A stretch of DNA of 64,000 nucleotides, from NCBI GenBank assembly GCA_030141605.1, contig JAQGDQ010000632.1:1-64000 (forward strand). Reading direction: 5' to 3'. The first letter of the stretch is position 1, and every line of letters starts with the position of its first letter. This stretch comes from Tubiluchus corallicola (Eukaryota > Animalia > Priapulida). This document shows, piece by piece, positions 3,827-64,000 of the stretch. Both the position numbers and the translations under genes were made by a program. Under the pieces are notes generated by a model. It saw only the letters and a list, made by a program, of their open reading frames with translations. It was not told the DNA's origin and made no database searches.

Positions 3827-4051
3827 TGCATCCATCCATCCATCCATCCATCCATCCATCCATCCATCCATCCATCCATCCATCCATCCATCCATCCATC
3901 CATCCATGCATGCATGCATGCATGCATGCATGCATGCATGCATACATACATACATACATACATACATACATACATACATACATACATACATACATACATA
4001 CATACATACATACATACATACATACATACATACATACATACATACATACAT

Positions 4052-28685: not shown

Positions 28686-28744
28686 TTTGCAATGACTTCA
28701 TATAAGTCATAGACGTCATCAAACAGTACTTCTTCGTCTCCCAT
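28686..28744 (-). CDS. CASK: CASK/LIN-2 first coding exon, 59 coding bp (too short for the ORF track)
   Basis: Reverse complement reads cagcaacATG GGA GAC GAA GAA GTA CTG TTT GAT GAC GTC TAT GAC TTA TAT GAA GTC ATT GCA AA|GTGAGT = MGDEEVLFDDVYDLYEVIA(K), matching the CASK N-terminus ([20 protein letters not shown]); splices in frame to 13377. Confidence 0.95.
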
Positions 28745-40750: not shown

Positions 40751-43278
40751 TGGGCGATTTCAACCTTGATATTTTAGCTACAAACACACTGGCATACAAA
40801 ACATACACAGAGCTTTTAAAACAATATAATGTCCACATACTTAACAACAATAAACCTACTCGAATTTCTAAAACATCAGCCACAGTAATCGACCATTTCA
40901 TTTCGAATAGTAACAATAATTTCGTAGCATATGATACTTTCCCGTGTGATTATTCGGATCATCATTTCACAATATTAGTAGATAAAATGACCCCACAGCA
41001 TAATAATAACCAAAATTCAGTCTGGCATTTAATGAGAGACTACGCCCAATACAACAAACATTCATACTTAATCGACTTAGCAAAAATGAACTGGACCTCC
41101 ATATATATGACTGATAAAATGGATACACAAGTTAATATTCTGACATATAATGTCGAATATTGCCTTAATGTACATGCACCATATAAAAACGTAAAGCAAA
41201 TCCCACAACAAAGCAAACTCAATAACGAAAGTACCTGGACAACACCTGAACTTGACAAACTAAGAATAGCGAAAAACAGAATGTATAATATATGGGAAAA
41301 GAACAAAACTAAAAACAATCATAACAATTATAAAAAAATGAGAAATCAATTTAATAATCTTAATAAATGCTTGAAAAATAAACATATACAACAACAATGT
41401 AAAAACGCAACAAATACCAAAGAAAAATGGAAAATTATTAACAATGTAATAAATAAATGCCGTAACAAACTAACGCGTGTTGACGAAATTAAGATCAACA
41501 ACACTGTTATTACAAAACCCAAAGATATTGCCAATGCGCTAAATGCAATATTCCTGAATCTTGGAAATTTTAAGGGAGTGGCTTCTCATATTAACAATAA
41601 TATAATTAATAAATTAAAAAACAAATCGTCTAACACAGTATTCTCATTCAAAAGCGTCACAGTAAAAGAAATTAACGACATATTAAATAACCTAAGTTCC
41701 AACAAAGGGAGTGGACCATCAGATATTCCTATCAAAATTCTAAAAGATAGCGCATCTGTAATAGCCCCGCATATGACTTACATTGCTAATCAGATAATTA
41801 TGAGAGGCGAATTTCCAACGGTATGTAAAATGGCAAACGTGACTCCAATCCATAAAAAAGATCCAAAATGTGGTCCCATGAATTATCGCCCAATTTCCGT
41901 AATCCATTGTTTCGGCAAAGTTTGGGAAAGGGTAATTTATGATCAGATAAATTCATATGTAAATAAACATGAACTTTTATCAAAACATCAGTTTGGCTTC
42001 CGTAAACACCATTCAACCATTGACGCCTTAATACACACAACAGAAAATTGGAGACATAGTTTAGACAACAAGCAATACATTTTAGCAGCATTTTTGGATT
42101 TAAGTAAAGCTTTCGATAGCATTAATCACGAACTACTTTACGATAATTTAAAACAAATCGGATTAGATTCGATATCGTTAAAACTGATACAAAATTATCT
42201 CAAAGATAGACAACAACGAGTAAAGTTAGATACAACCAACTTTTCTGACTGGGCCACGTTAAACAGAGGTATACCGCAAGGAACACTACTAGGTCCGTTA
42301 TTATTTTGCCTATATATAAACAACATATCCAGTGTATTAAAACACTCACAAATAACGCAATACACTGATGACACTACAATCTACATAGCCCATGAAAATG
42401 TCCAAACTGCAAAAAATTATTTAGAAGAAGATATAAAAAATATAAATATGGCATTTAGTCATTACAAGCTAAAAATGAATAATGACAAAACAGAATTCAT
42501 GATACTGTCACCCTCATTAAATACTAATGATGCATCATCAACCACTTTGACAATAGATAATGCTGTAATCAAACAAACTAACAATGTTACACTCCTGGGC
42601 ATACAAGTAGACAATAATCTTTCATGGGATGATCACTTTAATAACATATACACAAAAATGGCATCTAGCACATCATATCTCCGACAAGTTAAAGGGCAAC
42701 TAACAAAGGAAACTAAAACACTAATATATAAAACTTTAGTTCTACCACACTTCTTATATGGATGTACACTACTTCAAAAAACCAAAAGAGAAAATTACTT
42801 AAAATTAAATCTCCTTCAAAACTATGCGTTGAGATTGATAGCTGGGTACTCATACAAACACAAGGCAGGTAGACAAAAATTCAAAGCTTCAACAACTAAC
42901 CTGAGAAAAACTTTAAAATTCCCAATCATTGAAGCACACAAAGAATATTTTACTCTGCTTTTTATATTTAAATACATTAACAACATCAGCAAACCATTCC
43001 AGAATAACAGATTTACCTTTCTTCCAAATCCTATCGTTAATTCCAGAACAAGCAATCTAAAACAAATTAGGACAAATACCCACTATGGAACGAACTCTGT
43101 AATCAAACAAGCAATTTTACTTTGGAATTCTTTACCATTACAGGTTAAACAAATCAAGTCCCTATCAGCATTTAAAACAAAATTAAAATCACTAATATTA
43201 ACCAGATATGAAATACCATCACACCAGTACGACAACATACACACTAATTCCGAATTCATATACCCACGGCCATATTAA
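40750..43278 (+). CDS. LINE ORF2 3' part (rest of APE plus reverse transcriptase), offset from the 5' part by a 1-nt frameshift
   Basis: GDFN, PTR...IDH and SDH (APE); NYRPIS, QFGFR, FLDLSKAFD, GIPQGTLLGPLLF, YTDD and LLGI (RT). Confidence 0.92.
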   Translation: MGDFNLDILATNTLAYKTYTELLKQYNVHILNNNKPTRISKTSATVIDHFISNSNNNFVAYDTFPCDYSDHHFTILVDKMTPQHNNNQNSVWHLMRDYAQYNKHSYLIDLAKMNWTSIYMTDKMDTQVNILTYNVEYCLNVHAPYKNVKQIPQQSKLNNESTWTTPELDKLRIAKNRMYNIWEKNKTKNNHNNYKKMRNQFNNLNKCLKNKHIQQQCKNATNTKEKWKIINNVINKCRNKLTRVDEIKINNTVITKPKDIANALNAIFLNLGNFKGVASHINNNIINKLKNKSSNTVFSFKSVTVKEINDILNNLSSNKGSGPSDIPIKILKDSASVIAPHMTYIANQIIMRGEFPTVCKMANVTPIHKKDPKCGPMNYRPISVIHCFGKVWERVIYDQINSYVNKHELLSKHQFGFRKHHSTIDALIHTTENWRHSLDNKQYILAAFLDLSKAFDSINHELLYDNLKQIGLDSISLKLIQNYLKDRQQRVKLDTTNFSDWATLNRGIPQGTLLGPLLFCLYINNISSVLKHSQITQYTDDTTIYIAHENVQTAKNYLEEDIKNINMAFSHYKLKMNNDKTEFMILSPSLNTNDASSTTLTIDNAVIKQTNNVTLLGIQVDNNLSWDDHFNNIYTKMASSTSYLRQVKGQLTKETKTLIYKTLVLPHFLYGCTLLQKTKRENYLKLNLLQNYALRLIAGYSYKHKAGRQKFKASTTNLRKTLKFPIIEAHKEYFTLLFIFKYINNISKPFQNNRFTFLPNPIVNSRTSNLKQIRTNTHYGTNSVIKQAILLWNSLPLQVKQIKSLSAFKTKLKSLILTRYEIPSHQYDNIHTNSEFIYPRPY

Positions 43279-44264: not shown

Positions 44265-44520
44265 CTCGTTCACTCATTCATTCATTCGTTCATTCATTCG
44301 CTCATTCATTCATTTCTTCACTCATTTATTCATTTATTCATAGATGCATTTATTCACTTATTCACTTGTTTGCTTATTTATTTATTTATCTCTGTCTGTC
44401 TGTCTGTCTGTTTGTTTGTCTGTCTGTCTGTTCGTCCGTCCCTCCGTCTGTCCGTCCGTCCGCCTGCCTGCCTCCCGGTCTAATACGTTTGCTTATTCGA
44501 TTGCATTTATTTATTTATCT
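44265..44520. repeat. Degenerate compound microsatellite (TTCA/TTTA/TCTG/TCCG)
   Basis: Directly visible. Confidence 0.85.
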
Positions 44521-45083
44521 CATCTGGTATCTGCCTCTAATCAGCCGCGTTCACACTTCTGTGATCCATCCTTACATTTTCCTAAAGCTGCGACCGTTGT
44601 GATATTAAAGTGGTACCACCTTATGCTTCTAGTTCCTGCATACTGTGTCACTGCATTATTCATAATATTACTTCTTTATTAGCATAACAACATTGATATC
44701 ACCAAATGCTGAAATTATTATTGGTTAGTGCAGTCAGCTATTCTAAACCTTGCAATTAACTTTTGATGTTCCTAATTTACAGCAGCTCCAAACTTGCAGC
44801 AAAGATTTCAGGACGTAGGGTGCTTGAAAGTTCATTCGCTAAGTTCTGATTTGATCTGCTTACGTTTCTCAGCCTCCATGCCGGCAAACTTTTGCTTACA
44901 CTAGATACGATTACATGTTTTTGCTGTTTGACTCAACTGTGCTAGTAAATTAATGGGTGCCATTTTTAAACCTGAACCAATTCTGAAGGAGCAAATATGC
45001 GAAAATGTCTTTAGCCAGGCAGTTTTAGTGTTTTCACGTTTTGAGGCCCGGCTTCGCGAGTTTCACGAGGAGCACAAGCAGCT

Positions 45084-45259
45084 GTGAGTATCAATTCAAG
45101 TACCTCTTTTTGTGTTTTCATGTTCTTTCTGGTTTATGTACTGCTGTTATTCTGGACTGCGAGGTTTCTGGAAAGAAAGTGAAACTTGTTTGGTATCAGT
45201 AATGCTTGCTGTACGAAATATTTGTACTGAACGTTTCTATTGTTTTTTTCTTTTTTCAG
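45084..45259 (+). other. Probable 5'-UTR intron of the three-Ig gene
   Basis: GTGAGT donor at 45084; long polypyrimidine tract and CAG acceptor ending at 45259, 8 nt before the ATG. The acceptor is more secure than the donor. Confidence 0.6.
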
Positions 45260-45267
45260 GGTACGTT

Positions 45268-46290
45268 ATGAAGCAAACATTGAGTGCTGCAGTGGTAGTT
45301 CTCTTGTTGTTGGTTGTATGTACACGTGCAAAAGAGAAGCCACAGTTCACGCGATCCCTGGTGGACGTGACAAGTGTAGAAGCAGGAATTGTCTACTTTT
45401 TCTGCGAAGCCAATGGCGACCCACCGCCAGTGTTCACTTGGTTCAAGAGAGGAAACTTGATTAAAGCAAACACCAGTCGTCGATTTACCGTCACTTCTAC
45501 TAGAACTGGAAGTGTCTTGACGATTGATCCTGCGAAGGCGAAACGAGACGAGACCCAATATTCCTGCAAAGCAGAAAACGAAGTCGGCACTGCAGAGAGT
45601 CGTGCTTCTTTGAAAATATATGGTCGTAGCCAAATTCCGGCGGGATTTCCCAGGTTAACCCAACGGCCCCAAACAAAGGCTGTTGAAGGGGGTAGACAGG
45701 TCGTACTGGTTTGCGAGGCAACTGGCGATCCACCACCCACTGTCATATGGCTGCATAATCATGCCTTGGTTGATACCAGCGATCCAAGGATTTCAATACT
45801 CCGTGTCGGATCGCTTCATATAACAGACAGCCAGAAATCAGATGAGGGGAAATATTCATGCATTGCGACAAACTCAGTAGGAACTGCGACGTCTTATCCA
45901 TCAAGTCTGTACGTCAAAGAAAGGAGGAAGACAATGATTCCTAGTATCACACTTCCGTCAGTGTTGGAGGTACCTCAAGGAGGTGATGTGAATCTGACCT
46001 GTGCAACAGAAGGAATCGCCCAGCTACATTTTAGTTGGTTTTTGGGAAATCAAAAGGAATCACTCGAAGAAGAAGCGAGTATTATTGGTAGGGAGAACGT
46101 ACTGGAGTTGCTAAATGTCACAGAGCCTGCAAATTACACTTGCTTTGCCACCAATGCTGTTGGCGCTGCATGGTCAAGTGTTTTAGTAACTGTTGATGTT
46201 GCAGATGCCTCAAACAGAATAACATTTGGTGGAGTTAATATCGCAGGAATTCTTATTATAACAGCCCTGTTGCAGAAGATCATATTGTAG
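45268..46290 (+). CDS. LAR-paralogous three-Ig cell-surface protein, 340 aa, with signal peptide and putative GPI signal; single coding exon
   Basis: Signal MKQTLSAAVVVLLLLVVCTRA; three Cys-paired Ig domains collinear with Ig1-3 of the 56245 gene (FFCEAxGDP, GSVLxIDP...KRDET, PAGFP, DEGKYxCIAxNSVG, GRxNVLxLxN, ANYTC); hydrophobic C-terminus; AATAAA at 46552. Confidence 0.9.
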   Translation: MKQTLSAAVVVLLLLVVCTRAKEKPQFTRSLVDVTSVEAGIVYFFCEANGDPPPVFTWFKRGNLIKANTSRRFTVTSTRTGSVLTIDPAKAKRDETQYSCKAENEVGTAESRASLKIYGRSQIPAGFPRLTQRPQTKAVEGGRQVVLVCEATGDPPPTVIWLHNHALVDTSDPRISILRVGSLHITDSQKSDEGKYSCIATNSVGTATSYPSSLYVKERRKTMIPSITLPSVLEVPQGGDVNLTCATEGIAQLHFSWFLGNQKESLEEEASIIGRENVLELLNVTEPANYTCFATNAVGAAWSSVLVTVDVADASNRITFGGVNIAGILIITALLQKIIL

Positions 46291-47819
46291 ACTTACCGAA
46301 AAACCGTGATGATGACGTTCGATAGTTGAGATAGTTTTGCGTTTGTTAGTTAAGGAGAAAAGCGACGATAACTAAGATTTAGACTCAATAGACATTATTC
46401 AATGAGAGAATGACGACAATGTACGTACATTTGATAAAGCTGAAATGCACAGTCCTATGTAGTCATGACCAAGAGGCCCCAGTATATTTGGCCATAATTG
46501 CATGGTCGCGGCATCGGCGGCAATTTGATGCAGTAGAAACAGTTACTAAATAATAAAGTTTGCATTAATTTTAAAAACCAAAGTAAAGAACGAACAAAAT
46601 GCCTATAGTTTGACGAACGAGTCTTTTTGTGAGTAGGTCTTTATTCGTTATAATTGTTTGCGTTCAGCAGCCAAGGATTCACGGTTGTGCTGATGTGTGA
46701 GTCACATCATAATCATGTTACCTCTGTTATCCACGTTAGTATTACTGATGGTAAAGTATTTTCATCATTGTGTACATCGAGTAAATTACATGATTTATTT
46801 TGATTATAACATACTGTAGCAAAGTTACCATGTTGATTTACTGACTTCACACCAGCAGATAGCGTAAACGACTCAAGAATTACAAAATTTGTTTTGGTCG
46901 TTACCCAGTCATTAGCGAAGTTGAATCCAAGTATCAAGCTGTTCACTTGTTAATGGTTTATTTTTCAAACAGTTAGTCAGGCAGAGCTTGAATGCTTAAT
47001 GATTATTTTTAAAGGATTTTACAATAACAAAATACGTATTTTATTATTTCTTAAACACTTAAGAGGGTTTCGCTTAAAGGTGTGGTTGACCCACACAGAA
47101 TCATAGTCACATGCTCAAATTACAGCGTTGGCCATGGCTGCAGTGACAACGGCGGTATTCACAAAAACAACAACAGTAGCAGCAGGGCAATAAAAACAAC
47201 AACAGCAGCAATAATAGCACTAGCAGTAACGATGATGACAGTGACGACAATGATGGTTATGGCGACAATGAAGGTGGTCACTCCAGTGAACGATGACAAC
47301 TGCAACACAGGTGCAGTGAAAGAGTGCAGCAACAACAATAGCAGCAACAGCCCTAGCAAGAAGAACAAATTAAAACTGTAATAATGATGAGCAAAGTACG
47401 TTGAAAAAAACTACGATATTTTAATAAAAATTATTTTAGTTTTGGGAAATAATTTATGTGTAATGCAGTATGCGTTCAACAGAGAAAATAAACAATGTAG
47501 ATTAATAAATGGATGGGTGACAACAGGGAAAATTGCTTCTATGTATATTCATCAAACGTACTATCTTAGCTATTTTTCACCAACTATGATCGAGACTTGT
47601 TCAGTGTTTTCTCAAATGAGCACTTTTGATAGCAAAATGAGTGCCAGTCATTCGCACTAGTCATTCTATGCCACTGAGTCCTGAATCTGCTTGTGGAGTA
47701 CCAAAGCACATCAGTTATCACACAAACTTATTTTACATACTAAACAGTTTTACTGCTAATGATACCCACTCGTTACTGGAGACAATAAAGTGAGTGCTTT
47801 TTATTGTCTGCCGGATAAT

Positions 47820-48650
47820 AGATAATAAATTAATAATGAGTTTTATTGAAAAGTCATATCATAGCAGCAATGACTGAATACAACGTGTGAATGCAGCAAA
47901 AATACAGAGAAGAGAGTCAAAAGACACTTAAACAACAGAATATAAAATATAATTATGTAAGAGGCACAAAATTATATAAGAAACAAATGAGACAAATGAC
48001 TACACGAAGTCACTAAAGCGGTTTAAGACTAACTGTGACAATATATATATTACTAAGATATTAATTAGATATCATTATATCTAATTAAGAAAGTACTTTA
48101 GCATTACTTTTAATTTTTCTAATATGCTGATAGTAACATGCATTGCTGAACGTTTGTAAAGTACTGTCTGAAATTTAGGCTAATTAAAAGAGCGAGGAAT
48201 ACAATTGTTTACACTAATATGGGAAGGAGGAAGCAAGACTTAGTGCCTGTGACACTGAATAATGTTAGGAGCAAAATTACATGTTAATGTTTGTCTATGA
48301 TTTTGCATTGTAAACAGGTAAGTTTATGTTAAGCATCCAAAAAGCAAAATCTTTGCCGAAAATTATGCGACTAATTGTTTTTTAATTTTTTTTCAATACA
48401 GGAAATTTAGTCGAGCTCCAAATAAAAGAAGCATACTCCAAGGCAAGACGAATATAAGTTGCGAAGACACGAGCTGGGTTTAATGTAGAAGCTCTATATC
48501 TTTTTATCACAGAAGCCACTAAAATTCGTTTACCTGTTTTAGCAGTAATCTTTTCGATTTGTTTATCCCACTTCAGATTATTTTGAAGTTCGACACCCAA
48601 TAACTTTGTAAGATTTTTAACAGACAACTCATCACCGTTAATTATTATAG
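47820..48650 (-). mobile_element. 5'-truncated, degenerate L2/CR1-type LINE fragment
   Basis: KLLGVELQNNLKWDKQI...YIRLALEYASFIWS is the RT thumb region; aataaa and an AT-rich simple tail near 47845-47820 on the minus strand. Confidence 0.75.
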
Positions 48651-48959
48651 CTGAGGGGGGGGCAGATCTGCATGGATTAGTTCGAAAGTCAAAATGCGCG
48701 ACACCACACCATAATATTCAGTGAAATCTCTGTAAACCAAAAAATACGTGTTCGACATAATACTGTCGTAAACTTAAAAAATCGGCACAGTGCACTTTGG
48801 CACCATGTCGCGAACTTGTAAAAGTGTCTAGTTATTTGGACTATATGGACACTTTATCATATCCCTGATAAGAATCGATTAGCTCATAAAGTAATACAAT
48901 ACCAATAATAAGAAATGATAGGAATCGGTCATGGCTAATGATTTGCAATTGATAGCTAA

Positions 48960-49420
48960 AAACTCTATGTAGATGTATTAACAGCTCGGAAAAAAATCAG
49001 AATGGAAGAAAAGTGCTAAAAATCGATAGTATTATGAAATACATAAACTCAAAGTACCACCTGAAAGTAATAGATGGCACAAAGCTAAGATTTTCGCAAA
49101 ATACAGTATAGAAATGTGAAACCTAAATTCAGCAGAGTAGCTAGAAAATCTATTGTATATGAACATGTCAGAAGTCAGATATAATGATAGAAATAAGTAC
49201 ATAATATATTACGTCCAATGTGTAAAAGAGAGAATGACACAACTGAACACTTGTTTGAATGTGAGGAAAACAAGCGAAGAATATTCGATGAGATTAAAGT
49301 GTCGGTAGATGATATATTTAGCAACAACATGTAACAAAATGTAACAAAATACGAAAATATGTTGAAATTATTATGTATGATGAAGCACAAACAAATTAGT
49401 GAAGACATGAAGAGAAGTCG
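48960..49420 (+). mobile_element. Degenerate LINE 3' remnant with zinc-knuckle trace (boundaries approximate)
   Basis: 49212-49265 translates RPMCKRENDTTEHLFECE, a CCHC knuckle with the first Cys lost; its downstream ~70 bp recur at about 51429-51496. Confidence 0.55.
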
Positions 49421-51545
49421 TCATCAATACAAAAAGAAACATGAAAGTACGATGCCAGAATATAGTGAAACTTGATCTCGCAAATCAAGAAGAGTTTGCT
49501 CATCTATTGATGAACTGGATATAGTGGAATCACAAGGATCACATAGGAACATAGATTTCGACGTAAGCGTAGCGGGCGTGCGGGGTGCTCTTGAATTAGA
49601 ATCCATTTCCTGGAACAGGAAAGTCGCTATTGCGCTTGATTGCTTTGCAGGAGGAGTATGAAGAATGGTGGTGATTCAGAGTTCGGAATTTCAGACCACC
49701 TCGAATAAGTCGTTATAACTTGTCGTTATTTCAGCTAGACGAAGTAGAACTACTTGATTCTAAAGTAGAATTCGGAGGTGAGGACTTAACCTTTTTTTTT
49801 GCTAGAAGTAGTAGGGCTAGTAATTAGAATGATCATTATCGATGTTCTTGCACTGCAAATTTGCATTCGCAAATCGCAGGTTGGAAGTCAGATGTTTAAT
49901 TATTTACTTAAGAAGATGATTATTTATGATGAAGTTTCAAACACCACGACATAAGATGTGTATATGAGTATTAAATAAACTAATATTCATATTTTAACTG
50001 GCCAGGATTGTCTCAGAAGTAAAAATAAATCTTATTTTCGTGAAAAAACGTCGAAGAAACAAACAAAACATATCCGCAAGTTGGTGCCTCGGTTAACTTG
50101 ATTATATCTGAGACTTTTGAGTAACATAAGATACATGGTTTATTTTAATTTATAATTATGTTATGTATGATTTATTAAATTTAACTTTAATTAAATAAGT
50201 TTTAGCATGATGAATTTTATCTTAAGTTGTTATTTACACAACAATTTATACTATATGTCTATAGTATGAATATCATTCAATTTCATGATAATTTGTTTTT
50301 TTTAATCTTCCTATATTATGTTATTCCAAGAGCATGTCAGCTTGATTTAAATAGCTAGCAATGTTATATGAATGCATGATGCCATTCTTTAACATCTTAA
50401 TTGAGTCATGTCATTAAACGTTACGTGTATAATATCATATTACACCAAGTTTTGTTATTATTATTGTGATAATTCATTTTTTCTTCACCTTGGCAATTTT
50501 TTTAACTGAGTTATATATGCTAATTAAGTGAATACTTTAATAATATAAAAAGTAATCCTTTAATTTTGCTTGCCTGCTTGATATGAAATAATCAAACTAG
50601 TTTCACATTGCAAGGTTCTTCTTTGTCGTCAGCTTATTTTGTTATTATTTATATACGTATTAGCATAAAGTAACTGTTTTTTTCTGCTTGTTGCTATACT
50701 GACTCATCTGATAATTTAATTATAAATTAAAATTACATATATATGATGAGTTTAAAGATATTAATAATAATAATATTACAGCTAATTTCTCAGAAAATGT
50801 AAATATTATTATTAGTATTGTATTATGTTATCTATGTATATTAGTAATAATAATATTTACATTTTCTGAGAAATTTATTTTTAATATTATTATTGAGAAA
50901 ATGCTTAAATACTTAGGCGATATTTACAATTTAACCTGCATGTAGAATGATACAGTATTGCTATGCATAAGTGTCTCATTTTCACACTTAGTATTACTGT
51001 TTTGACTTGCTTTATAACGTTTGTTTGGTTTCGTGAACTATTATTGGATGATATTAATTATTTTAATTTGCATGATGTTTGCATGGTAATCTAGTGTGTG
51101 TTTTTTGCTTTGTTAAATCACCATTAAATTTAATTATTGGTCTGAATTATAATTAAGTTTTAAATTATTGTACTCATTATATTAATTTGTAGACAGTTTG
51201 GCACTATCCAGTTGTTAACTATTCAAAAACCGATAACGTATGTTTGCTGCCACCCCTTCCGATCCACTTTGTTCATAAGTTGTATTTATTCATGTTGTTG
51301 TTTGGGACAAAAATTAATAATTTAATTTTCTTTGAAAACTTATCCAGCTGCTTATATGGATAGGCTGGTAGCCTCGTACCGATACGATATTCAACTGCTT
51401 AAAAATAGATAAATAGATAGTTAAAATGAAAATATGTTGAAATAATTATGTATGATGAAGCACAAACAAATTAGTGAAGACGTGAAGAGAAGTCGTAATC
51501 TCCCTATTGAACACAATAATGAATGAACAGTCCAATACCGTAAAG

Positions 51546-52024
51546 CAGGGGTGTGCAAATTGCGGCCCGCAGAGAGAACTTGTGCGGCCCGCGAAGAGAT
51601 TTGTCAACCTAATGAAAGTGCGGCCCGGGAGATTAATAGAGTGTATCCAGCTGAAGTCCGCGCCACGATCCCAAAGATAGTGCGGGTAGTTTTTTCCACT
51701 AGATCGGATGGCATTAACCCTTACAAGACGGTTGTAGCTTAATGTCACTGTACTACACAGACTGTGTGATACACATTACTAATATGCATTGTAATGAAAT
51801 TACCACTATCTGTCCTGAAAGTAGAAATATATGGTTTGTAATATAAATTTTAATAACTTCTAAAATAGTTTTTTGAGTGTAGTAGTAATGATGTACGCAG
51901 GTCAGATGCAAAAAAATCGTTATAAGGCCTTTCTGTACTTGGCTCCTTGATCAAACTGCCTCTGGCCAGGAATTGCAAGAAAGTTTAATGTAGCCCGGCT
52001 AGTCAGATAATTTGCACACCCCTG
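51546..52024. mobile_element. hAT-superfamily (Charlie-like) MITE, 479 bp
   Basis: Perfect 16-bp TIRs CAGGGGTGTGCAAATT / AATTTGCACACCCCTG; 8-bp TSD ccgtaaag / ccataaag (7/8); subterminal GCGGCCCG repeats. Confidence 0.92.
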
Positions 52025-53129
52025 CCATAAAGTGTACACTCTACGGCTGCAACTTGAATTGCTTCACCTAGTCTTTATCAACACATGTGCCATTGTATGG
52101 TCAAGCGTGCATGATATATACCCTCGACTCAGTTTATCACAGTACTCGTACACTTTGGCATTACGCATTAAAGATATTGTGATATATTGTTATATGTGTG
52201 CCAATATTTGTCAATTTGATTTGCAATAAATAATAAAGTAGTGGCATTTCTTAAAGAATGTCTTTGTTGACAAACAATGAATAGCTGTTATAGTTTAGTT
52301 AAAGAATTTGTAATAAATTTGCTTCAAGCTGTGCAAATGTCGTAAAAACATATCACGAGTAAAAAATATTCGCGGCCAGTGCAGTTAGATGGTGGTTCAG
52401 TTGGGGGGGGGCATAATTTCATTAGCTTAGAGGCCCCAAAAAGTCATAATCTGGCCCTAGTTATTCTGGCACGATAGATTTTTTCTGCTAGTGAAGTACT
52501 TGAATCCATCAGTAGTTACGTCAATCAATAATATTGTCTTATAATAATAGCATTGCCATTGACATACTTTCGCCCCTGCTATAAGGTAGCCAAATTTTGA
52601 ATAGAATTACCTGTTGATTAACTTTATGGTAATTTAACTAATCCCATCTTAAAAAACAAACAAGTTGACAAAAAAATCATTTACGTTACTTGCATTATAT
52701 ATATAAAGTACCGTTGTAAGCCACTGATGCACACTGGGATTGTCTGACATCGTGGTAGTATCACAAATTCTTTTCTCTAACTTCAGTTTTTAAATAAGAA
52801 TGCTGCTAGCTGATATAATTTTGTTTTGAGATTTTTTAAAACATACTTCAAAATTTGCAAGTGTTTTCCTTTCAAATATTTAAAAGTATCTTTGGTTAGC
52901 ATTTAAATTCTTTACGGCAAGAACAATATCAGCTTTTCCCAACTTATGACAACCCATTTATAATAAATTTTATTACATTTTTATTAGAAAAATCCAGTGT
53001 TTCTAGTGGGCTGTTTATGAAACATCTAGCCAATTTTTTTTTGAAGATTGCGCAGAAGTGCTATGTCCTTATGGAATGTTAGAAAATTATAGTGCCATAT
53101 ATAATCTTATACCCAACAGGCTTAAAAGA

Positions 53130-53727
53130 AGACAGGATGATTTTGCATATACCACCCCATTTTCAAATCGATAAAAAGTATACATTTTAACACCAATAAT
53201 ACTACAAAAGGGCTTCTGATAATTAAATAATAGATTAAAATCTTAATTAATGACAGGGAGCCAAACTAGTGATGACATCACAAACTGACATAATTTTCAG
53301 CAGCAAAAATATTCCACAAGTGTGTTCCATGTGTTTGCGAAAACAAAAATTGAAATACAGTGCTACTGTAAGGTATTCAGTGTGTTGTACTAAAACTAGG
53401 CAAGTTTTAAGATGAAATTTCAAATTTACGCTCATGCATGAAGTGTGGAACGTGTGTTCATCACAAACTAACACATTTTAACTGAGTGGTACAGCACCTG
53501 TTTTTGTGCAATGGGCTTTCGAAATACAGGCGCTAGTGGTCACTTAACTAGCAAATGGCGAAATGCATGTATCAGTAAAGAAGTAGTGGCACGAACATGA
53601 AATGTTTGTGTGGTATTAATTCTTTCACGTAAGTAATTTTTGAAAAAACAGTTTGTTTCCTTTCAATATTTAAAGAGTATAGATTGTTTTGACCTACAGT
53701 TTAAGATTGGGTCCCGCTTTGCTGTAA
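53130..53727 (-). mobile_element. Dispersed repeat copy 3, inverted relative to 10283 and 21457
   Basis: gacctacagtttaagattgg and aattaaataatagattaaaatcttaattaa are reverse complements of segments at 21478-21493 and 21921-21950. Confidence 0.7.
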
Positions 53728-53795
53728 GTCTTTCACACGCTTCAAATTTCAGTTCTCACGCATTCCTCAACTTCACACCCAAGGTTGCAAAATCG

Positions 53796-53950
53796 ACTGG
53801 CTTCCTTTGCCATCAGCATCAAGGGTGACAAAATCACCTGGCTGACTTTGCCATCAGCATCAAAGGTGACAACGTCACCAGGCTTCCTTTGCCATTTATA
53901 AGCGTCGAGTCTGCCAAAGTCACCTGGCTTCCTTTGCCATTTATAAGCAT
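53796..53950. repeat. Degenerate short tandem repeat (ctggcttcctttgccat core), 4 copies
   Basis: Directly visible. Confidence 0.75.
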
Positions 53951-56244
53951 AATGGTGAAACAGTTAATAATGCAACTTTCATTAATATGGAGCGTTCATG
54001 CATCTCACGATGTGTGTATTAAGCATTTCTGGTGCCGTAACAATAAGAAATCTCAGTAGTACCCACAAATTGCCTTATTTTTTAATTTTTGCCTTACTTT
54101 GATATTTTGATTTTGACACCAAAAATTTATGTTGCATTAATTTGCACACTGGACACCTGCCAAGGGCAACATGATCCCTAGGCTTTCTACATTTTATACT
54201 CATTTTTGCATGAAGTGGTTGGTAGGTCTCCAGTTGGCCATTTTTTGTTGTTCCTTTTACAATAACTGAATAGTCTTTCAACTGTTTGTGGTGTGCTGAT
54301 ATTGATACAAACATCTTTATTGCGAAGATCGTGTATTATCTTCGTTTAAAATATGCATTGTCTTTGTACAAAATTTTCATACATTTCCAAATAATCTTCT
54401 AAAAAAATCTTGTCCTCTTATCATTACATGTGCAAAGTTTCAGTGGAAACTTCGCTTATGGTTTGATAAGAATGTATAGGGCTAGTGGGACAGCAAGGAC
54501 AAGATCGATATTGATTTAACGTTCATTCAATATCCATTTTTTTCAACAACATATCCTTATTCTGATAAAGTAGGAAATGTCAAATTATGAACAGACAATT
54601 GCATGGTTTCTAAGTTTGACGTATGCTAACAATTTGTCCTGATCAGTAAGCATATTTTACACTTCACGTTTAGCTCTTGTATTCCGGTTTAGTCGTAAGT
54701 ATAGTTCTCTGCATAGTGAAGTGCTGCTCAATGTTCGGAAGCTGTTTGGTGACATTTAGACACACAGCTCTTAACATATTCTAACATACAAGCAGACTTT
54801 GTTTGCCCTATGTTTTTCTCGTCTGCTATTCAGTTTCTGTTTTGCTAAATGAGGTTTGTAATTTGAACTCCTGTCTGTCAGGCAAAGTTTACGAATTATC
54901 AGAATGTAACTAAAAGATTGTGAAATAGCAATTGCTATTGTTTCATTTTAGTTTTGCGGAAAGAGCCATATTCTACTGAAATTTGAAATCTCTAGACCTA
55001 CTATGCTGTTCTGATCTGAACTTCGTAAACCAGGCATTTTACAAACTTAAACCTTCATGCTGACACGAAATTTCGTAACACAAATACACAGTCAAATTAG
55101 TGAATTCCAGAAGGCGTGGAGCCTCTTAACTGGCTTCATCATAACACTGGCAACGTACACTTTTGTGTAGCCTGGCTTCTGTGACCATGTGTAAAATTTG
55201 TGATGTCTGTGGGAGCTTTAAGAGTTTGGTTGGATGTTTATACAGCTGAATTCAACAAACGCTGCTCTGTTTTCAATACACATCCAAAAGCACATTTCTG
55301 CATGCCTGGTTGGCGGGCAATCTAAATAAAGGTTTTACGCACTGGTAGTAATTTATTACTACGGCAATCAGAAAAACATGGCTTCTGCTGTATGGCATTT
55401 TATGAAAAGATTAAATTCGAATTGGTGATGGTAATAAAAACTTGTGAGACTTGGTTAATGAACTTCCTGTGTTTAGTTTTTGAGGAATCCGAAGATTTGG
55501 TTTTTGCACTAACATTAGCACTATGCTTCGCCTTTGGCAGTTATTACATTATGGTGTACATCTGTAAGTGTCAGTACTAGTGTATGCAGTGGTGTGATAT
55601 TAATGTTCACGTGCCTATTAATGCTTCTAAGAATTAGTTTTGTTGTCATCTTGGCCAAGCCGAAACATGAATAGTAAATATGAAGACGAAATATATTATG
55701 TAGTTGAAATGATTATCAACTTTTGTCATTTGATACAAAGTATTTCATTCTGTATTGTGCACTAGAGTACATACATATTTGTTATTTTTTTAGTTTAATA
55801 TTTGTAACAGAAATGAATATACAGCCACGATCCATTAACCTTGGGGTATTCCTAAAATTATTGAGAACATTGCATTTTTTAAATTGTCATGTAGCTGTCT
55901 TGCAGTTTAAAAGTGGGAAAACGTTCATCATTGGTGTTCAGGTTTTTAGGAACTGCGACTCTGGGGACAAATTTGTTGTGGCAAATTAGTCGACAATTTA
56001 ACAGTGTAGAGTGCAGATTCTCGTTTACTTTAATGTGTTTTCGTATAAGTTGTAGGCATGTATGCATGCACTGCCTCTTTCTGTGCAGGAGCACAGCATT
56101 AGATTTGCTTGGATAAACTCTATGATTTTTGTTTTTAAATTTCTCTTTGATTATTGTTTCAGGTGCTGATATACTGGATAAACACTACAAACACGAACAA
56201 CTTCAGGGCTGTGTAGAATGCTTTAATTGAATCATCCTGTGGCC

Positions 56245-59200
56245 ATGAAAGGTGCTATATCATCACTGTGCGTGCTACTTGTAGCATTTCCACATGTCAT
56301 TTCAAGAGATGCACCTGAAATAACACGTCCCCTGGAAAATTTGTTTGCCATGGACGGAGGTGTCATCAATTTTTTCTGCGAAGCCAGTGGCGATCCCCTG
56401 CCGACGTTCAGTTGGTTCAAAAACGGCAAGCCGATTAATGCCGTCGCTCATCGTCACATGACGATGTCAATGCCGGGCGGCAGTGTCCTTAGAATTGACC
56501 CCGTGAATATGAAGCGAGATGAGACAAAATACACGTGTCGTGCAAGAAACGAAGTCGGTGACGATGCCGAGAGTCAGGCCACGCTGAAGGTCTATGATCA
56601 GAATCAACTCCCTGCAGGGTTCCCAGTAATTACTCGTCATCCACAATTGAAAGCCGTTGAAAAAGACAGGAATGCTATGATGATGTGTGAAGCGACAGGA
56701 GAGCCACAACCATCAACCACCTGGCTGAAGGATTTGATTCCGGTCAATATGAGCAATCCCAGGTATTCCATTGTGTCCCAAGGTTCCCTGCAGATAATCA
56801 GTACTAAGATAGAAGACGAGGGCAAATACGAATGCATTGCACATAATTCGGTGGGAGCCGTGTCGTCTTATCCAGCTAAACTTTATGTTAGGGTGCGCAG
56901 AGTCCCCCCTCATTTTACCATTTCTCCAGAGAACATTGAAGTATCACCTAGAAGCGATGCAAATTTAACTTGCGTAGCAGTTGGCTCACCGATGCCATAT
57001 GTCAAGTGGCTATTAGACGGAGAGGAGCTAGGTGACCGTGACTCCGTGCCAGTGGGTAGGAACGTGCTGATCCTCACTAATATTAAACAATCAGCTAATT
57101 ATACTTGCGTTGCAACCTCCGATCTTGGTTCAATTGAAGTCGTTGCTAGCGTAACTGTAAAAGCTGTTCCAAAGCCACCTACTGATCTTTGGGTTTCGGA
57201 CATTACGTCAACATCCGTTAAATTATCTTGGGTTACTCCTTCTGAGGAAAATGTAAGCAGTTACATCATTAGGTATAGCACTTCAAGCAGTAGTGACCGA
57301 GACAGGAATATAACAGGTATCACAGATAACAGTTACATAATCTCACAACTTGGCGCTTACACAGAGTACACATTTGAAGTTTTGTCAGTAAACAATGCTG
57401 GTAGTGGTTCACCAAGTGAACCAGTTACGGCAAGAACGGGAGAACTCTCGCCGGCAAGTGAACCGTTGCAAGTCACTGCGCATCCAATTAGTTCAAACAG
57501 TATCCTGGTACAATGGAGAGAGCCGCTAATGCCTAATGGGCACATCAAAGGCTACAAAGTATTCTATACAGATGATAGAACTTTGCCTATGAGTTTATGG
57601 CAAGATGAAGATGTGAAATCTGGTCTCTTGATAACCATTGGTAAGTTGAAGCCTCAGCACACATACACTATTGCTGTACTTGCATATAATAGTGTCGGTA
57701 CTGGGCCACCTAGCTCACCGATACAAGTAAGAACAGAGCAAGGTGTGCCGACAGAACCCGTTGGTTTGACAGGTCGTTCGCTTTCTCCTACTACAATAGA
57801 ACTTACATGGCAGCCTCCGCATCATGCTGCTGAAAATATAGACCAGTATGAGTTATACTATAATGGTTCCACATCTGATAAAGAAAATCACATTAGAATT
57901 CAGCCAACGACTTCGTACACCTTGCGTGATCTTATTCCCAATACTATGTACGTAATTAGGTTAGCAGCTCGTTCTCGTCGGGGTGAGGGCATCAGTACGC
58001 AGCCAGTCCAGGTTAAGACGGTCGAATTCATACCTGGTGCACCTCCTAGTGACGTACAGGCGAGGGCAGTTGATGCAAGAAGCATCATTGTAATGTGGAA
58101 GCCACCAGTTCAAAACTTACAAAATGGCGAAATAACTAAATATCATATTATTTATATTCCATCAGCAAAAATTGAAACGGGGCAAGAAAAAACAGTGGAA
58201 ACTGTCGGTAGCCAGTTCTCCAAATCTGTACTTTCCCATATAATAGATGGGCTTGAAAAATGGACAGAATATACAGTTTGGATGTATGCCAGTACAGTAG
58301 TTGGTGATGGCCCACGTTCCGAGCCAGTTATGGTGCGAACATTAGAAGCAATTCCTGGAGAACCAAGGAGGATTCGTTTAGCAGCAGTAAATTCAACTAC
58401 CGTGAAGGTAGAGTGGCGACCTCCACTGAATGCAGAAAGAAATGGTATAATTCAGGGTTACAATATTCACATCCAAAAACTAGATTCACTAAATGGCAAT
58501 CCTGTTGACATGCCTATGGTGGAAAGTGTTTCTGATGGCACAAAAGAAGAATTCTTCGTGACAGGACTAGTACCTGATAGCAGCTACAGCATTCAAGTAG
58601 CTGCTTACACACGTCCAGGTGATGGCCCGAGAAGCAAAGCCAAGACAATAAAGATGCCTGGACAACCCCCAGATCCACCGCATCTTGATGTTAAACTGAA
58701 GTCAAGTAATAGCATGTTGAACGCTTTGGTGGAGTTTAGTAAACCAGAAACGACGTATGGGACTCTTGTGAGTTACCATATTACATATGGAAAAGAGGAT
58801 CAAGAACCATTTGAAACTCTCGATGTGACAGCTGACAGTAACGTGCGTACACAGCGTCAGACCATTTACGATTTGGAGAAAAATTCTGTATACGAATTTA
58901 AAGTTTCTGCAAGCAACAGCTTTGGGACTAGCAAGGAGGCAGTGAAGAAACTGATGATTCCTGATGGTGTCACAAATAATTCTCCCCAGAATGTAGTTTA
59001 CAAAATGGTGGCATATGATACTGCCCGACTTTCTTGGGATGCTCCTATAACTGAAGATGAAAATATCTCTTTGTACAGCATTGAATTTTCTAATGTTGGT
59101 CATCCCAAGGATAAAATTACCAGAAATGTAACAGATAATTTTATAATAATCGATGGTCTTGAGCCAGATAATGAGTATTCATTTATGGTGCAAGCATATG

Positions 59201-61995
59201 TGTTACATTTTCCGGGACCATGGAGCAAAATATTGCACATACAAACACCAAGAGATGATTCTCTGAAGGCTCCACAATTGTCTTCCATTTCAGCAATTTC
59301 AACAAATTCAGTAGAAGTTGTGTGGACTCCTCTAAACTCTTCCTCCGTTACAAGATACATTGTTTATTACACCGGTGAAGTTGTTGATGACTTTAGCAAG
59401 TGGCACAAGAAAAATATAGATGGAGCTAAAGAATCTGTGCTCATTATTGACAGACTTATGCCTAGAGTGACCTACGCATTTCGTATTTGTGCAACATCGG
59501 AGACTAGTGTTGGATTGCTATCTGAACCGTCATTCGTTTTTACTGATACCACAGTTAGAAAGCCAATACCTACTGTAGGTAAAGCAGCAATAAATGTGCC
59601 AGAATTTCATCAGAAGACGACAAATAACACCATTGAGGTTAAGTTATTTAAGGCAGCAGATGAAAATGGTGCAATCAACCATTACTTTATCATTGTTGTA
59701 CCTGCTCAAGAAAATAGAAGTGATCCTGAGGACATTCCCACATCGGAGCTCATGTATTATTCTAAGAATGTAAGCAATAATGGCCTGAAATATGTTCCAG
59801 ACAATGTAGCTTATATTGCTGCAAAATTTGATGTAGACAAATACCCAGAGTATTTCGAAATTGGTGATGGTTTTCACTATAATAACTTTTATAATAAGCC
59901 TCTGCAAGTTGGCTTGAAATACACAGTATTTGTTCGTGCTGTAATAGAATCACCTGGGGAAGAATTAGAGTTGTCTAGCCCATTTTCTGAAACTTTTGGG
60001 CTCAAGCTAGACGATGGTACAACAATATTAGAGGTTCCTGATGACAAAACCATGCAAATTGCTGGCCCGATAATTGGAGTTTTGCTGTTTATTATTATTG
60101 CAGTACTTTTAGTGTTCTTGTATAAACGAGTTAAGCAAAACAAATTAAAATTACCAACCTCAAGTAATTTAGTGTATGCCGATCTTCCTTCTCATATGGA
60201 TCCAGTTGAAATGAGGCGACTTAATTTTCAAACTCCAGGAATGATAAAGCATCCTCCTATCCCAATATCTGAATTGGCTGCTACCATAGAGTTGCTAAAG
60301 GAAAACGACAATGAAAGATTTTCACAGGAGTATGAGTCTATCGAAACTGGCCAACAATTTACCTGGGAACATTCAAATATGGAATATAATAAGCATAAGA
60401 ACCGTTACGCTAATGTAATTGCTTATGATCACTCTCGGGTTGTTCTCTTGCCTGTTGAGGGAGAACTAGGCAGTGACTATATAAATGCCAATTTTTGTGA
60501 CGGCTACAGAAAAAAGAATGCTTACATTTCCACCCAGGGTCCACTGCCTAACACTTTTGGAGACTTTTGGCGAATGATATGGGAGCAAAAAACATATAGT
60601 ATTGTAATGATGACAAAACTTGAAGAGAGAACCCGTATAAAATGTGATCAGTACTGGCCAATCAGGGGAACAGAAACTTACGGTCCAATGCAAGTCACTA
60701 TTATTGAAGTGACAGAGTTGGCTACTTACACGATACGTACTTTTATCTTATCAAGAGCAGACTCTCCTGAAAAACGAGAAGTGCGCCAGTTTCAGTTCAC
60801 TGCTTGGCCTGATCATGGTGTACCAGAATACCCTACTCCTGTCCTGGCATTGTTGAAACGAGTCCGAGCAATGACACCCTCAGATTCTGGGCCAGTAGTG
60901 GTTCATTGTAGTGCCGGTGTTGGTAGAACTGGTGCATTTATCATCATCGATGCCATGCTGGAACGTATCAGACATGACAGGACGGTGGATATTTACGGCC
61001 ATGTAACATGTTTACGTGCACAACGTAACTACATGGTTCAAACTGAGGATCAATACATTTTCATACATGAAGCTCTCTTAGAAGCTGTGACAAGTGGAAA
61101 CACAGAAGTTCCTGCTAGGAGCCTTTATGGTCATTTACAAAAATTGACGCAACCGGAGCCAGGAGAAAACGTTACGGGCATGGAATTTGAATTTAAAAAA
61201 TTAGCCAATATGAAAGTGCATTCTTCAAGATTTGTTAGTGCTAACTTACCAGTGAATAAGTTCAAGAATAGACTTGTCAACATACTTCCATTTGAAAGCG
61301 CTAGAGTCAACCTTCAGCCGATCAGAGGTGTAGAGGGTTCGGATTACATTAATGCTAGCTGGATTGATGGTTACAGATACAAAAATGCATACATTGCCAC
61401 GCAGGGACCGTTGCCAGACACAACTGAAGATTTTTGGAGAATGTTGTGGGAGAATAACTGTACCATTGTTGTCATGCTCACAAAATTAAAGGAAATGGGA
61501 AGGGAGAAGTGCTACCAGTACTGGCCAAGCTCTCGGTCTGCTCGATATCAGTACTTTGTTGTTGATCCTGTTGGAGAATACAACATGCCACAGTATATAC
61601 TTAGGGAATTCAAGGTCACAGATGCCAGAGACGGCGAGTCGCACATGGTCCGGCAGTTCCAGTTTACAGACTGGCCAGAACAAGGTGTGCCCAAATCTGG
61701 TGAAGGCTTTATCGACTTCATTGGTCAAGTCCACAAAACAAAAGATCAATTTGGCCAAGATGGACCAATCGCCATTCACTGTAGTGCAGGAGTTGGAAGA
61801 ACTGGAGTGTTCATTACACTGAGCATTGTTCTGGAGCGAATGCGGTACGAGGGCGTTGTCGACATGTTTCAGACAGTTAAAATGTTACGCACTCTTCGCC
61901 CGTGCATGGTTCAGACAGAAGAGCAGTACCAGTTTTGTTACAAAGCAGCTTTGGAATATCTGGGCTCGTTTGATCACCTCATGATAAATTCATGA
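56245..61995 (+). CDS. Lar: LAR-type (type IIa; PTPRF/PTPRD/PTPRS, Dlar family) receptor protein tyrosine phosphatase, about 1916 aa, intronless CDS
   Basis: Signal peptide from ggccATG 56245; 3 Ig; 8 FN3 plus a membrane-proximal FN-like domain; TM IAGPIIGVLLFIIIAVLLVFLY; DPVEMRRLNFQTPGM juxtamembrane motif; D1 with KNRY/WPD/HCSAGVGR/QTEDQY; D2 with KNRL/WPE/HCSAGVGR; ends LEYLGSFDH; splice acceptor at 56162. Confidence 0.98.
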   Translation: MKGAISSLCVLLVAFPHVISRDAPEITRPLENLFAMDGGVINFFCEASGDPLPTFSWFKNGKPINAVAHRHMTMSMPGGSVLRIDPVNMKRDETKYTCRARNEVGDDAESQATLKVYDQNQLPAGFPVITRHPQLKAVEKDRNAMMMCEATGEPQPSTTWLKDLIPVNMSNPRYSIVSQGSLQIISTKIEDEGKYECIAHNSVGAVSSYPAKLYVRVRRVPPHFTISPENIEVSPRSDANLTCVAVGSPMPYVKWLLDGEELGDRDSVPVGRNVLILTNIKQSANYTCVATSDLGSIEVVASVTVKAVPKPPTDLWVSDITSTSVKLSWVTPSEENVSSYIIRYSTSSSSDRDRNITGITDNSYIISQLGAYTEYTFEVLSVNNAGSGSPSEPVTARTGELSPASEPLQVTAHPISSNSILVQWREPLMPNGHIKGYKVFYTDDRTLPMSLWQDEDVKSGLLITIGKLKPQHTYTIAVLAYNSVGTGPPSSPIQVRTEQGVPTEPVGLTGRSLSPTTIELTWQPPHHAAENIDQYELYYNGSTSDKENHIRIQPTTSYTLRDLIPNTMYVIRLAARSRRGEGISTQPVQVKTVEFIPGAPPSDVQARAVDARSIIVMWKPPVQNLQNGEITKYHIIYIPSAKIETGQEKTVETVGSQFSKSVLSHIIDGLEKWTEYTVWMYASTVVGDGPRSEPVMVRTLEAIPGEPRRIRLAAVNSTTVKVEWRPPLNAERNGIIQGYNIHIQKLDSLNGNPVDMPMVESVSDGTKEEFFVTGLVPDSSYSIQVAAYTRPGDGPRSKAKTIKMPGQPPDPPHLDVKLKSSNSMLNALVEFSKPETTYGTLVSYHITYGKEDQEPFETLDVTADSNVRTQRQTIYDLEKNSVYEFKVSASNSFGTSKEAVKKLMIPDGVTNNSPQNVVYKMVAYDTARLSWDAPITEDENISLYSIEFSNVGHPKDKITRNVTDNFIIIDGLEPDNEYSFMVQAYVLHFPGPWSKILHIQTPRDDSLKAPQLSSISAISTNSVEVVWTPLNSSSVTRYIVYYTGEVVDDFSKWHKKNIDGAKESVLIIDRLMPRVTYAFRICATSETSVGLLSEPSFVFTDTTVRKPIPTVGKAAINVPEFHQKTTNNTIEVKLFKAADENGAINHYFIIVVPAQENRSDPEDIPTSELMYYSKNVSNNGLKYVPDNVAYIAAKFDVDKYPEYFEIGDGFHYNNFYNKPLQVGLKYTVFVRAVIESPGEELELSSPFSETFGLKLDDGTTILEVPDDKTMQIAGPIIGVLLFIIIAVLLVFLYKRVKQNKLKLPTSSNLVYADLPSHMDPVEMRRLNFQTPGMIKHPPIPISELAATIELLKENDNERFSQEYESIETGQQFTWEHSNMEYNKHKNRYANVIAYDHSRVVLLPVEGELGSDYINANFCDGYRKKNAYISTQGPLPNTFGDFWRMIWEQKTYSIVMMTKLEERTRIKCDQYWPIRGTETYGPMQVTIIEVTELATYTIRTFILSRADSPEKREVRQFQFTAWPDHGVPEYPTPVLALLKRVRAMTPSDSGPVVVHCSAGVGRTGAFIIIDAMLERIRHDRTVDIYGHVTCLRAQRNYMVQTEDQYIFIHEALLEAVTSGNTEVPARSLYGHLQKLTQPEPGENVTGMEFEFKKLANMKVHSSRFVSANLPVNKFKNRLVNILPFESARVNLQPIRGVEGSDYINASWIDGYRYKNAYIATQGPLPDTTEDFWRMLWENNCTIVVMLTKLKEMGREKCYQYWPSSRSARYQYFVVDPVGEYNMPQYILREFKVTDARDGESHMVRQFQFTDWPEQGVPKSGEGFIDFIGQVHKTKDQFGQDGPIAIHCSAGVGRTGVFITLSIVLERMRYEGVVDMFQTVKMLRTLRPCMVQTEEQYQFCYKAALEYLGSFDHLMINS

Positions 61996-63971
61996 TGTAG
62001 TAATGTCATAAGTACATGTGTTCTGAAAAAGAATTGCTTCTCATTTTCACAAAGTGTGTTGTGTGTGTGTTTAGCTTTAGTATTTTAATGATACCCATTT
62101 ATCCCACCTATACAGGGAGGTTTGTTATCGTCAGACATATTAATTTGAGGTGTAAATGACATAGTTCTTACAACTAAGATAAACATTTTAAGAGCAAGTG
62201 CACACGTGTATGTGGGTAAATTGCTTATTTTCATAATAACAAAAATAAATGCTGACCTTTCTAAGAAGTTATAACTGTATCTGGGCTTATGAAATGGATT
62301 CTTGCTTTTGCACTGCTTTTTATCAGCTCTTTACATTATTTAGACAAAATTTATTTTCGTATGGTAAGTTTTACGTTGCTAGATCACTATTAACTGCATA
62401 TTCGTGCTACTAATATATTATTGTGCTATTTGTACTGCATTATAATTCTTAATTATGCTATATTAATTGTACAATGTAATTTTTAGCTTTGAAATTGTCG
62501 AAATTCTTTCAATATGGTGCCAATGCATGTAGTATTACTCTTTTGCTTGCTTGCCAAACTAGTGTCTTGTGAGAAAGAACAAGTTTTGTATTTCACATTC
62601 AGTGCACATATCATTTTCTTATGTGATGTGAATTTATTGGGTTGCTAGGGTAGCTAAGGGAGTATGGTTCACACAACGTGTAAATATGTCATTTTTTTGT
62701 ATAACGTCCTGATTATTTGTAGTGATTTTTGTCTGTGGCTGTTGATGCAACACTTGAAGCGTTGCATCACTGTGTTGTACCATATACAGCTGCTGAATCT
62801 ATTATTTGTTGTGATTCTCTCAATTTGTACAATTTGGTAATTGGCACTATTTGGTAGGTTGTATACAGTTGTTTCATTGTTTTTATGTCTGGGTAATGCA
62901 TACTACAAAATCTACTTGTACAGTTGCACTGTGTATTTTAAGGAGATTAGCTATGAAATGGGGGTTTTCCTGTATTTTTTGTAACAATCAAAGTAGAATA
63001 TTGTTCTGTAAAGATATGTTTTTCTGATTTGTTTATATCTTATTTTTTCATATTATTATTACAGACATTGTGCTGTTTTCTATATTTATGTATTATACAT
63101 ATTTTTCATTTTTACTTTTGATTTTGGTTGTTAATCGTTGATTTTCAACCTTGATGCTTGTATGCTTGCTTAATTTTTGATGAATGAATCAAATGTGTGC
63201 CCTGCATTTATCTGTTACTCATGTGGCGTGTACAATGTCCCTGTAGAAGCTTAGTACAATTGTCCAGTTATGACAAATGTCCATTTAGTGTAGAAATTGG
63301 TGTTCTTTAATCCAATTTGTAGCGATTTGTTGCGCAAAATAATTTCTTTCATCTTATTCTCTGTCTGTAGCTCATTTAGTACTTCTCCTTGTTGGTGATT
63401 TGCTAATCACTGCCAATTAATTAAATCTATTTATGTCTTTGAAGTATTACTGTACAGTAGCTAAAATGTGCTTCACAGTTTCTGTGATTGGTAACCACAA
63501 TGCGTTTGGATTTAATTTGCATTACATTATTATTATTCTATCCTTTGGCACTCTGTATTACAGATCATGAAGGTAAGTACTCTGCCACTCTACTGTCATT
63601 TTTGTAGTCTTGAAGACTGTCAGTGCTATCATCTGATATTACAACCTGTGTGAGCAAGTAGTCTGCTACTGACTGTCATTTTTGTAGTCTTGAAGATTGT
63701 CAGTGCTGTCATCTGATTTTACAACTCGTGAAAGCAAGTACTCTGCTACTGACTGTCATTTTTGTAGTCTTGAAGACTGCAGTGCTGTCATCTGGTTTTA
63801 CAGTTTGTCGTTTTATTTCATTGTGCCTTTATCGAATCTAAATAGTATTAATATGTGCTTTTGGATTTGATCCATTCCAGTATACGTCCGTCTACTGTGC
63901 CTTTTTATAATGAACCACAGATCAAACAGCCGTGCCATTATATTTTATGTACTTATATGTATAAAAATAAA
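61996..63971 (+). other. Probable long U-rich 3' UTR of Lar
   Basis: Strong T skew on the plus strand; AATAAA candidates near 62244 and 63966; true end unknown. Confidence 0.45.
63575..63802. repeat. Tandem repeat, about 80 bp unit, 3 copies
   Basis: actgtcatttttgtagtcttgaaga.tg(t)cagtgct occurs three times. Confidence 0.88.
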
Positions 63972-64000
63972 CAGGCATTTGCTATTAATTTTATGGTTTT

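Follow-up and report, generated by a model that had tools for sequence, protein, structure and literature searches.

An intact LAR-type receptor tyrosine phosphatase gene with its whole coding sequence in a single exon: evidence for loss of coding introns

The LAR family of receptor tyrosine phosphatases is a standard example of proteins in which mini-exon splicing determines the choice of binding partner; in vertebrates, mini-exons A to D and the skipping of FN3 domains tune ligand binding, according to the accessible portions of three studies (PMC8711739, PMC12598525, PMC2120354). A LAR-type gene in the window analyzed here (one continuous stretch of 64,000 nucleotides) carries no coding intron, unlike the known type IIa RPTPs, and raises the questions of whether this structure is genuine, whether it arose by intron loss and, if so, by which route. 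The window contains the following features:

56245-61995, plus strand: LAR-type receptor phosphatase with a single coding exon (frame, Pfam, hydropathy; contigs over 56245-61400)
61996-64000, plus strand: LAR 3' flank or 3' UTR, with AATAAA at 62244 and 63966 (sequence)
56140-56162, plus strand: candidate LAR splice acceptor, cis or trans (sequence; TGTTTCAG common to the CASK exon 2 acceptor)
45268-46290, plus strand: short intronless paralogue of LAR, 340 aa (signal peptide, LAR-type Ig1-3, GPI-like tail; no FN3, no phosphatase)
45086-45259, plus strand: candidate intron in the 5' UTR of the short paralogue (donor GTGAGT; acceptor AG after a strong pyrimidine tract, 8 nt ahead of the ATG)
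37708-43278, plus strand: LINE-like retrotransposon, ORF1 and a reverse-transcriptase frame with one frame change near 40750 (frames, Pfam)
28686-28744, minus strand: first coding exon of CASK, 59 nt (sequence)
13265-13377, minus strand: second coding exon of CASK, 113 nt (exon 2 frame matches CASK, E = 2e-15)
1-668, 1648-3829, 6885-7937, 32234-33440 and 34460-35331: minisatellite arrays with periods 27, 89, 70, 31 and 58, respectively

The LAR-type gene is one stop-free frame of 1916 codons (5751 nt), for which the probability of occurrence by chance is approx. 1e-51 at the base composition of the window. Pfam assigned three Ig (I-set) stretches, then eight FN3 stretches and, in the cytoplasmic part, two Y_phosphatase stretches (D1 and D2) to the encoded protein; hydropathy analysis placed a signal peptide at the N-terminus and a single membrane helix at aa ~1270-1295 (hydropathy peak at aa 1267-1298), and a juxtamembrane domain separates the FN3 stretches from this helix. 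The type IIa RPTPs (i.e., PTPRF, PTPRD, PTPRS and Drosophila Lar) have the same domain order, and the part of PMC8711739 available to us likewise describes LAR receptors with three Ig domains, eight FN3 domains, a membrane helix, D1 and D2. Among the 120 matches listed, all were named Lar, PTPRF, PTPRD or PTPRS or were unnamed PTPs. The best ectodomain matches showed 41-43% identity, while over Ig1-3 the closest match reached ~56% (homologue and representative searches); D1 identity was 71-78% with all but one of 17 homologues, the exception being a model without part of D1. The D1 catalytic motifs, which the first-pass annotation had described as intact, were all located (KNRY at 1385, WPD within 1517-1527, HCSAGVGRTG within 1553-1563 and QTEDQY at 1599). 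D2, as read from the translation, carries KNRL and WPE substitutions, which match the type IIa pattern. The encoded form lacks mini-exons A and B. In the Ig1 basic loop (window 56413-56460), KNGKP is found at the place of KKGKK in two vertebrate rows; this loop binds heparan sulfate, and binding by the KNGKP form may be weaker.

A frame of this kind could conceal an intron without stop codons. In an alignment with 7 homologues (aa 1-1782), however, the longest insertion private to the window protein was 6 aa, which indicates that no stop-free intron is read through in the LAR frame; a hidden in-frame intron was thus rejected. The frame could also be an assembly artefact (i.e., cDNA or collapsed sequence built into the genome), a possibility that had been raised together with the original observation. 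Contigs of four public runs were compared with window positions 44501-61400, which hold the first 5156 of the 5751 LAR coding bases. Contigs of run X1 (DNA by guess) extend over 53746-56702, 56743-60816 and 61003-61400, covering 4930 of the 5156 coding bases compared, and two contigs of X3, which comes from a separate study, bridge both X1 gaps (56537-56829 and 60787-61118). No intron was found over these first 5156 bases in X1 and X3. Moreover, the X1 contig starting at 53746 is continuous from 2.5 kb of upstream non-coding DNA into the LAR coding sequence, and contig depth over the LAR ectodomain (164-194) is on a par with the single-copy flanks (175-203), so that there is no second ectodomain at 80% identity or more. 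X1 may be the sample from which the window was assembled, and the contig comparison stops 595 coding bases before the end of the gene; its three LAR contigs show 12 letter differences from the window, so that X1 is at least another haplotype, yet it shows the same unbroken sequence. We thus regard an artefact as very unlikely. The claim that the whole 5.75 kb coding sequence lies in one exon holds. The X3 contig at 60787-61118 (record 16) is 622 nt long and aligned over just 332 nt.

Splice sites in homologues bear on whether the single exon is derived. Exon edges were inferred from proteins rather than read from genes, using within-species isoform differences (7 groups and a crinoid), the ends of partial gene models and alignment gaps. 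Among the ends of 98 partial gene models were aa 306-307 (21 models), aa 400-402 (21), aa 592-595 (18), aa 499-500 (4) and aa 701 (2); gaps were read from 158 of 307 long proteins, aligned over the cytoplasmic part. Approximately 17 splice or exon-edge sites were inferred within LAR, and the window gene has none of them, as LAR homology is unbroken across every mapped site. Five of these sites occur in two phyla, i.e., the edges at aa ~179 and ~765 (vertebrates and crinoid), at aa 1294 (vertebrates and scorpion) and at aa 1332 and 1364 (vertebrates and Trichinella); the remaining sites are partly weaker, resting on 1-2 gene models. Sixteen of the 17 sites are flanked on both sides by 31 or more letters of an X1 contig, and one is located beyond the compared stretch. 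As vertebrate, echinoderm, arthropod and nematode homologues share sites that are missing here, these comparisons support loss, and not primitive absence, of the LAR coding introns, in line with the initial proposal that introns had been lost relative to multi-exon homologues. The loss would be an old one, since contigs of X5 (DNA by guess, mostly ~10% diverged in coding DNA) cross the sites at aa 701 and 1505 unbroken, which places loss there before the split from that relative, and since the 46%-identical short paralogue is intronless too.

With regard to mechanism, we tentatively favor, at a probability of roughly 45%, a loss in place. LAR mRNA would have been reverse-transcribed and the cDNA would have recombined with the resident gene, with conversion starting at the 3' end, reaching the first coding exon and sparing just a likely 5'-UTR intron; the introns would have been removed at the original site of the gene, in a single long tract or a small number of them. 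Both the precise loss of all coding introns and an acceptor before the start are expected if the gene recombined with a long cDNA. The available sections of PMC3488318 describe cDNA-mediated intron loss as 3'-biased and precise, taking neighbouring introns and sparing the 5'-most, and call direct evidence for it scant. The window gene resembles such cases in the precise removal and in an apparently kept 5'-most non-coding intron (represented by a motif only). It differs from them in that the tract comprises the entire 5.75-kb coding sequence, beside a gene with 15-kb introns.

The acceptor-like sequence ttattgtttcAG ends at 56162, 82 nt upstream of the LAR ATG, and its last 8 letters, TGTTTCAG, are the same as those of the CASK exon 2 acceptor. 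The first-pass annotation had reported a 5'-UTR acceptor at this position; an acceptor-like motif is indeed present, but it fails the strict polypyrimidine pattern. A search for strong donors by strict pattern found none near LAR, the one match being at 48318. An acceptor-like site precedes the ATG in all three genes of the window, which fits 5'-UTR introns or spliced-leader trans-splicing; the CASK site is at 28795 (minus strand), 50 nt upstream of its ATG. For LAR and the short paralogue, a site in this position corresponds to the pattern of 3'-biased cDNA recombination outlined in the accessible text of PMC3488318. Upstream of LAR, window positions 51269-54088 consist of very high-copy repeats, with a summed depth of up to 860,000 as compared to ~180 for single-copy sequence. 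The observed/expected CpG ratio is ~0.6-1.1 at 43-52 kb and down to 0.4-0.8 over LAR, and the CpG profile did not pinpoint a promoter. Two YY1-like ATGGCG motifs, at 43507 and 43691, fall in a region of higher CpG content that precedes the short paralogue; this region could serve as promoter for either or both of the genes on the plus strand.

The genome contains a second LAR-type D1 locus elsewhere, as a separate X1 contig over the start of D1 has single-copy depth (192.9). All 9 of its listed differences are synonymous, and 7 of these letters are shared by X3 and 5 by X5 and X6. Judged by the distances to the end of the piece, the alignment has no break between 60257 (or an earlier position) and 60445, and this second locus thus seems likewise to be without the aa 1364 intron. 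The existence of this locus speaks against loss in place, as does the 5' acceptor being just a motif. In a genome with 15-kb introns, moreover, one conversion must remove a very large span, which favors retroposition or stepwise loss.

It is quite conceivable, although we would lean against it, that LAR is a retrogene, i.e., that a full-length LAR mRNA was inserted beside CASK by LINE machinery, gained a promoter and a 5'-UTR intron at the new site and then replaced its parent or coexists with it. Every coding intron is gone over a gene-long tract, and insertion would presumably be easier than in-place deletion in a long-intron gene. The second D1 locus could be the parent, but its piece at 60257-60445 seems to lack the aa 1364 intron, unlike what an intron-bearing parent should show. 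Retrocopies of at least 6 kb with an intact start are rare. No A-run of 7 or more bases is present in the 2 kb 3' of LAR (61996-64000), though an old copy is expected to have lost its poly(A). A LINE is located 13 kb upstream of LAR, between CASK and the LAR pair; this LINE-like element is near-complete and ends with AATAAA and a TA run, and its ORF1 has a weak GDSL-esterase match (E = 6e-4, below the cut-off). It attests to reverse transcriptase genes in the genome but does not show that LAR was acted on by this particular copy. The human genes listed in the study of orphan retrogenes reportedly encode far shorter proteins. Orphan retrogenes under strong purifying selection are known (25 human cases), and these are likewise intronless intact copies of genes that are multi-exon in other animals, as set out in the portion of that study at hand (PMC3548309).

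The CASK gene provides the only comparison within the window. Both coding exons that had been noted (59 and 113 bp, split by a 15 kb intron) were located; the intron between them is 15,308 nt, which shows that the genome has long introns. These exon sizes match those of human CASK exons 1 and 2. A third CASK exon was not found in the remaining 13 kb of the window. CASK is a weak control for LAR being exceptional in this genome, because it is a single, partial neighbour and its visible introns are the first ones, which 3'-biased loss would spare. A stepwise loss of introns throughout the lineage, with LAR in the tail of the distribution and the surviving introns grown long, would agree with a window that shows just 5'-most introns (i.e., CASK introns 1-2 and UTR introns). 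In quick trees, LAR forms a long branch that falls in none of the well-supported arthropod, deuterostome and trochozoan groups, and its grouping with ecdysozoans has a support of 51; these trees contain no non-LAR outgroup and no named cnidarian, xenacoelomorph, gnathiferan, priapulid or flatworm rows. Acoelomorphs, one candidate lineage outside these groups, have few exons, with a mean of 3.2-6.3 per gene, and in ZO1, Eya and Kirrel their exons are fewer or longer, according to the available part of PMC10565955. Chaetognaths were considered as a further candidate, and LAR is not mentioned in the accessible text on either group (PMC10565955, PMC12460157). CASK, however, keeps its small exons, and the absence of a third exon from the 13 kb downstream of the second indicates that a second long intron was kept; independent loss of at least 17 sites, including the 5'-most coding ones, is improbable unless loss was extreme. 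Overall, we consider lineage-wide stepwise loss unlikely. Loss in place, retroposition and lineage-wide loss can overlap, and all of them may involve reverse transcriptase. Of the initial proposal of retroposition or cDNA-mediated loss of all coding introns, the loss itself stands, and a role of cDNA in it appears the likeliest explanation.

The short paralogue is a second intronless gene, as the first-pass annotation had stated; it has one coding frame (45268-46290), and one X1 contig spans it with zero differences. Translation probably starts at 45268, 8 nt after a strong acceptor at 45259, rather than at the ORF start at 45136. The tail, in which we read a GPI signal by eye and from hydropathy, comprises a small-residue site (D313-A314-S315), a spacer and a 16-residue hydrophobic C-terminus, with no cytoplasmic part; the protein is thus predicted to be a GPI-anchored, phosphatase-free form of LAR Ig1-3. 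Like LAR, it is without the mini-exon A site. A signal peptide, three Ig domains and a hydrophobic C-terminus are also found in IgLON/Lachesin-type GPI proteins, and the nearest Atlas clusters are neurotrimin, LSAMP, OPCML and lachesin (0.93-0.94); by sequence, on the other hand, the paralogue is LAR Ig1-3, and the likeness to IgLON/Lachesin is one of architecture alone. Its best solved match is PTPRD (E = 2e-62). A search for matches of near length yielded one with E at or below 1e-30, namely a fragment of a snail gene model, and no LAR fragment besides the short paralogue was found in window 1-56200.

The short paralogue is closest to the window LAR (46%, 256 bits; others at most 45%, next 230 bits), and the two pair in the tree with a support of 40. 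The acceptor just before the ATG in both genes fits a partial duplication at the DNA level after intron loss. Conversely, homology of the short paralogue ends at the Ig3/FN1 exon edge, where 21 of the 98 partial gene models end, which also fits a short splice form that was fixed separately; a truncated, secreted form of rat LAR arises via a retained intron, as reported in the available part of PMC2120354. The proposal that intron loss preceded the duplication is hence plausible but unproven, with the closest relationship and shared acceptor on one side and the support of 40 and the Ig3/FN1 end on the other.

LAR function appears likely to have been kept, as 8 of the 13 allelic differences listed among the best-supported rows are synonymous, none is a stop, and pieces of X6 cover both genes. 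The pieces of X6 (RNA by guess, from a relative) map to LAR, to the short paralogue and otherwise mainly to repeats, which is a hint of expression of the two genes, short of proof. Among the 15 of 254 X6 joints that were listed, no joint was at the LAR or short-paralogue acceptor. For the short paralogue, both of the 2 listed allelic differences change a residue.

If LAR acts as it does elsewhere, its Ig and FN3 domains would bind surface ligands, D1 would dephosphorylate tyrosine and D2 would serve as a scaffold. As the gene has no coding intron, mini-exons A-D and FN3 skipping cannot occur in it, and the mini-exon code must be either dispensable there or replaced by paralogues. With LAR limited to the form without mini-exons, any variety in the ectodomain has to come from paralogues, for example from the neighbouring Ig1-3 protein with its predicted GPI anchor or from the second D1 locus. 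A bolder reading, which we think improbable, is that the lineage swapped the LAR splice code for a small intronless family in which each old form is one coding exon, with neighbours possibly sharing a 5' leader exon. The fixed forms would then be the full-length receptor, a second D1-bearing receptor and a form with Ig1-3 only; the latter, GPI-anchored, would be a phosphatase-free decoy or ligand, and the lineage would provide a natural test of whether LAR microexon control is needed for the wiring of nervous systems.

A search for descriptions of an intronless LAR, or of LAR intron evolution, found none in the literature covered, outside which most subscription papers fall. Both cDNA-mediated loss and orphan retrogenes are already known, and the scale seen here is unusual; what stands out is total intron loss in a gene with a mini-exon code, together with a predicted GPI-anchored derivative. 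LAR represents a large, clean case for asking whether cDNA can remove the introns of a whole gene, and this case would become ordinary if the lineage is intron-poor throughout.

Two further observations concern the relatives. X5 and X6 share the species label of X1, yet their divergence from the window amounts to ~10% in the coding DNA of the ectodomain and to 2-4% in the listed PTP pieces; this divergence under one label possibly reflects cryptic species. Gene models of amphioxus (P0272 and P0277) and of a horseshoe crab (P0244) contain repeated LAR Ig1-3 blocks and no phosphatase, with the amphioxus blocks joined to unrelated domains, which suggests that other lineages, too, have put the LAR Ig module to new use.
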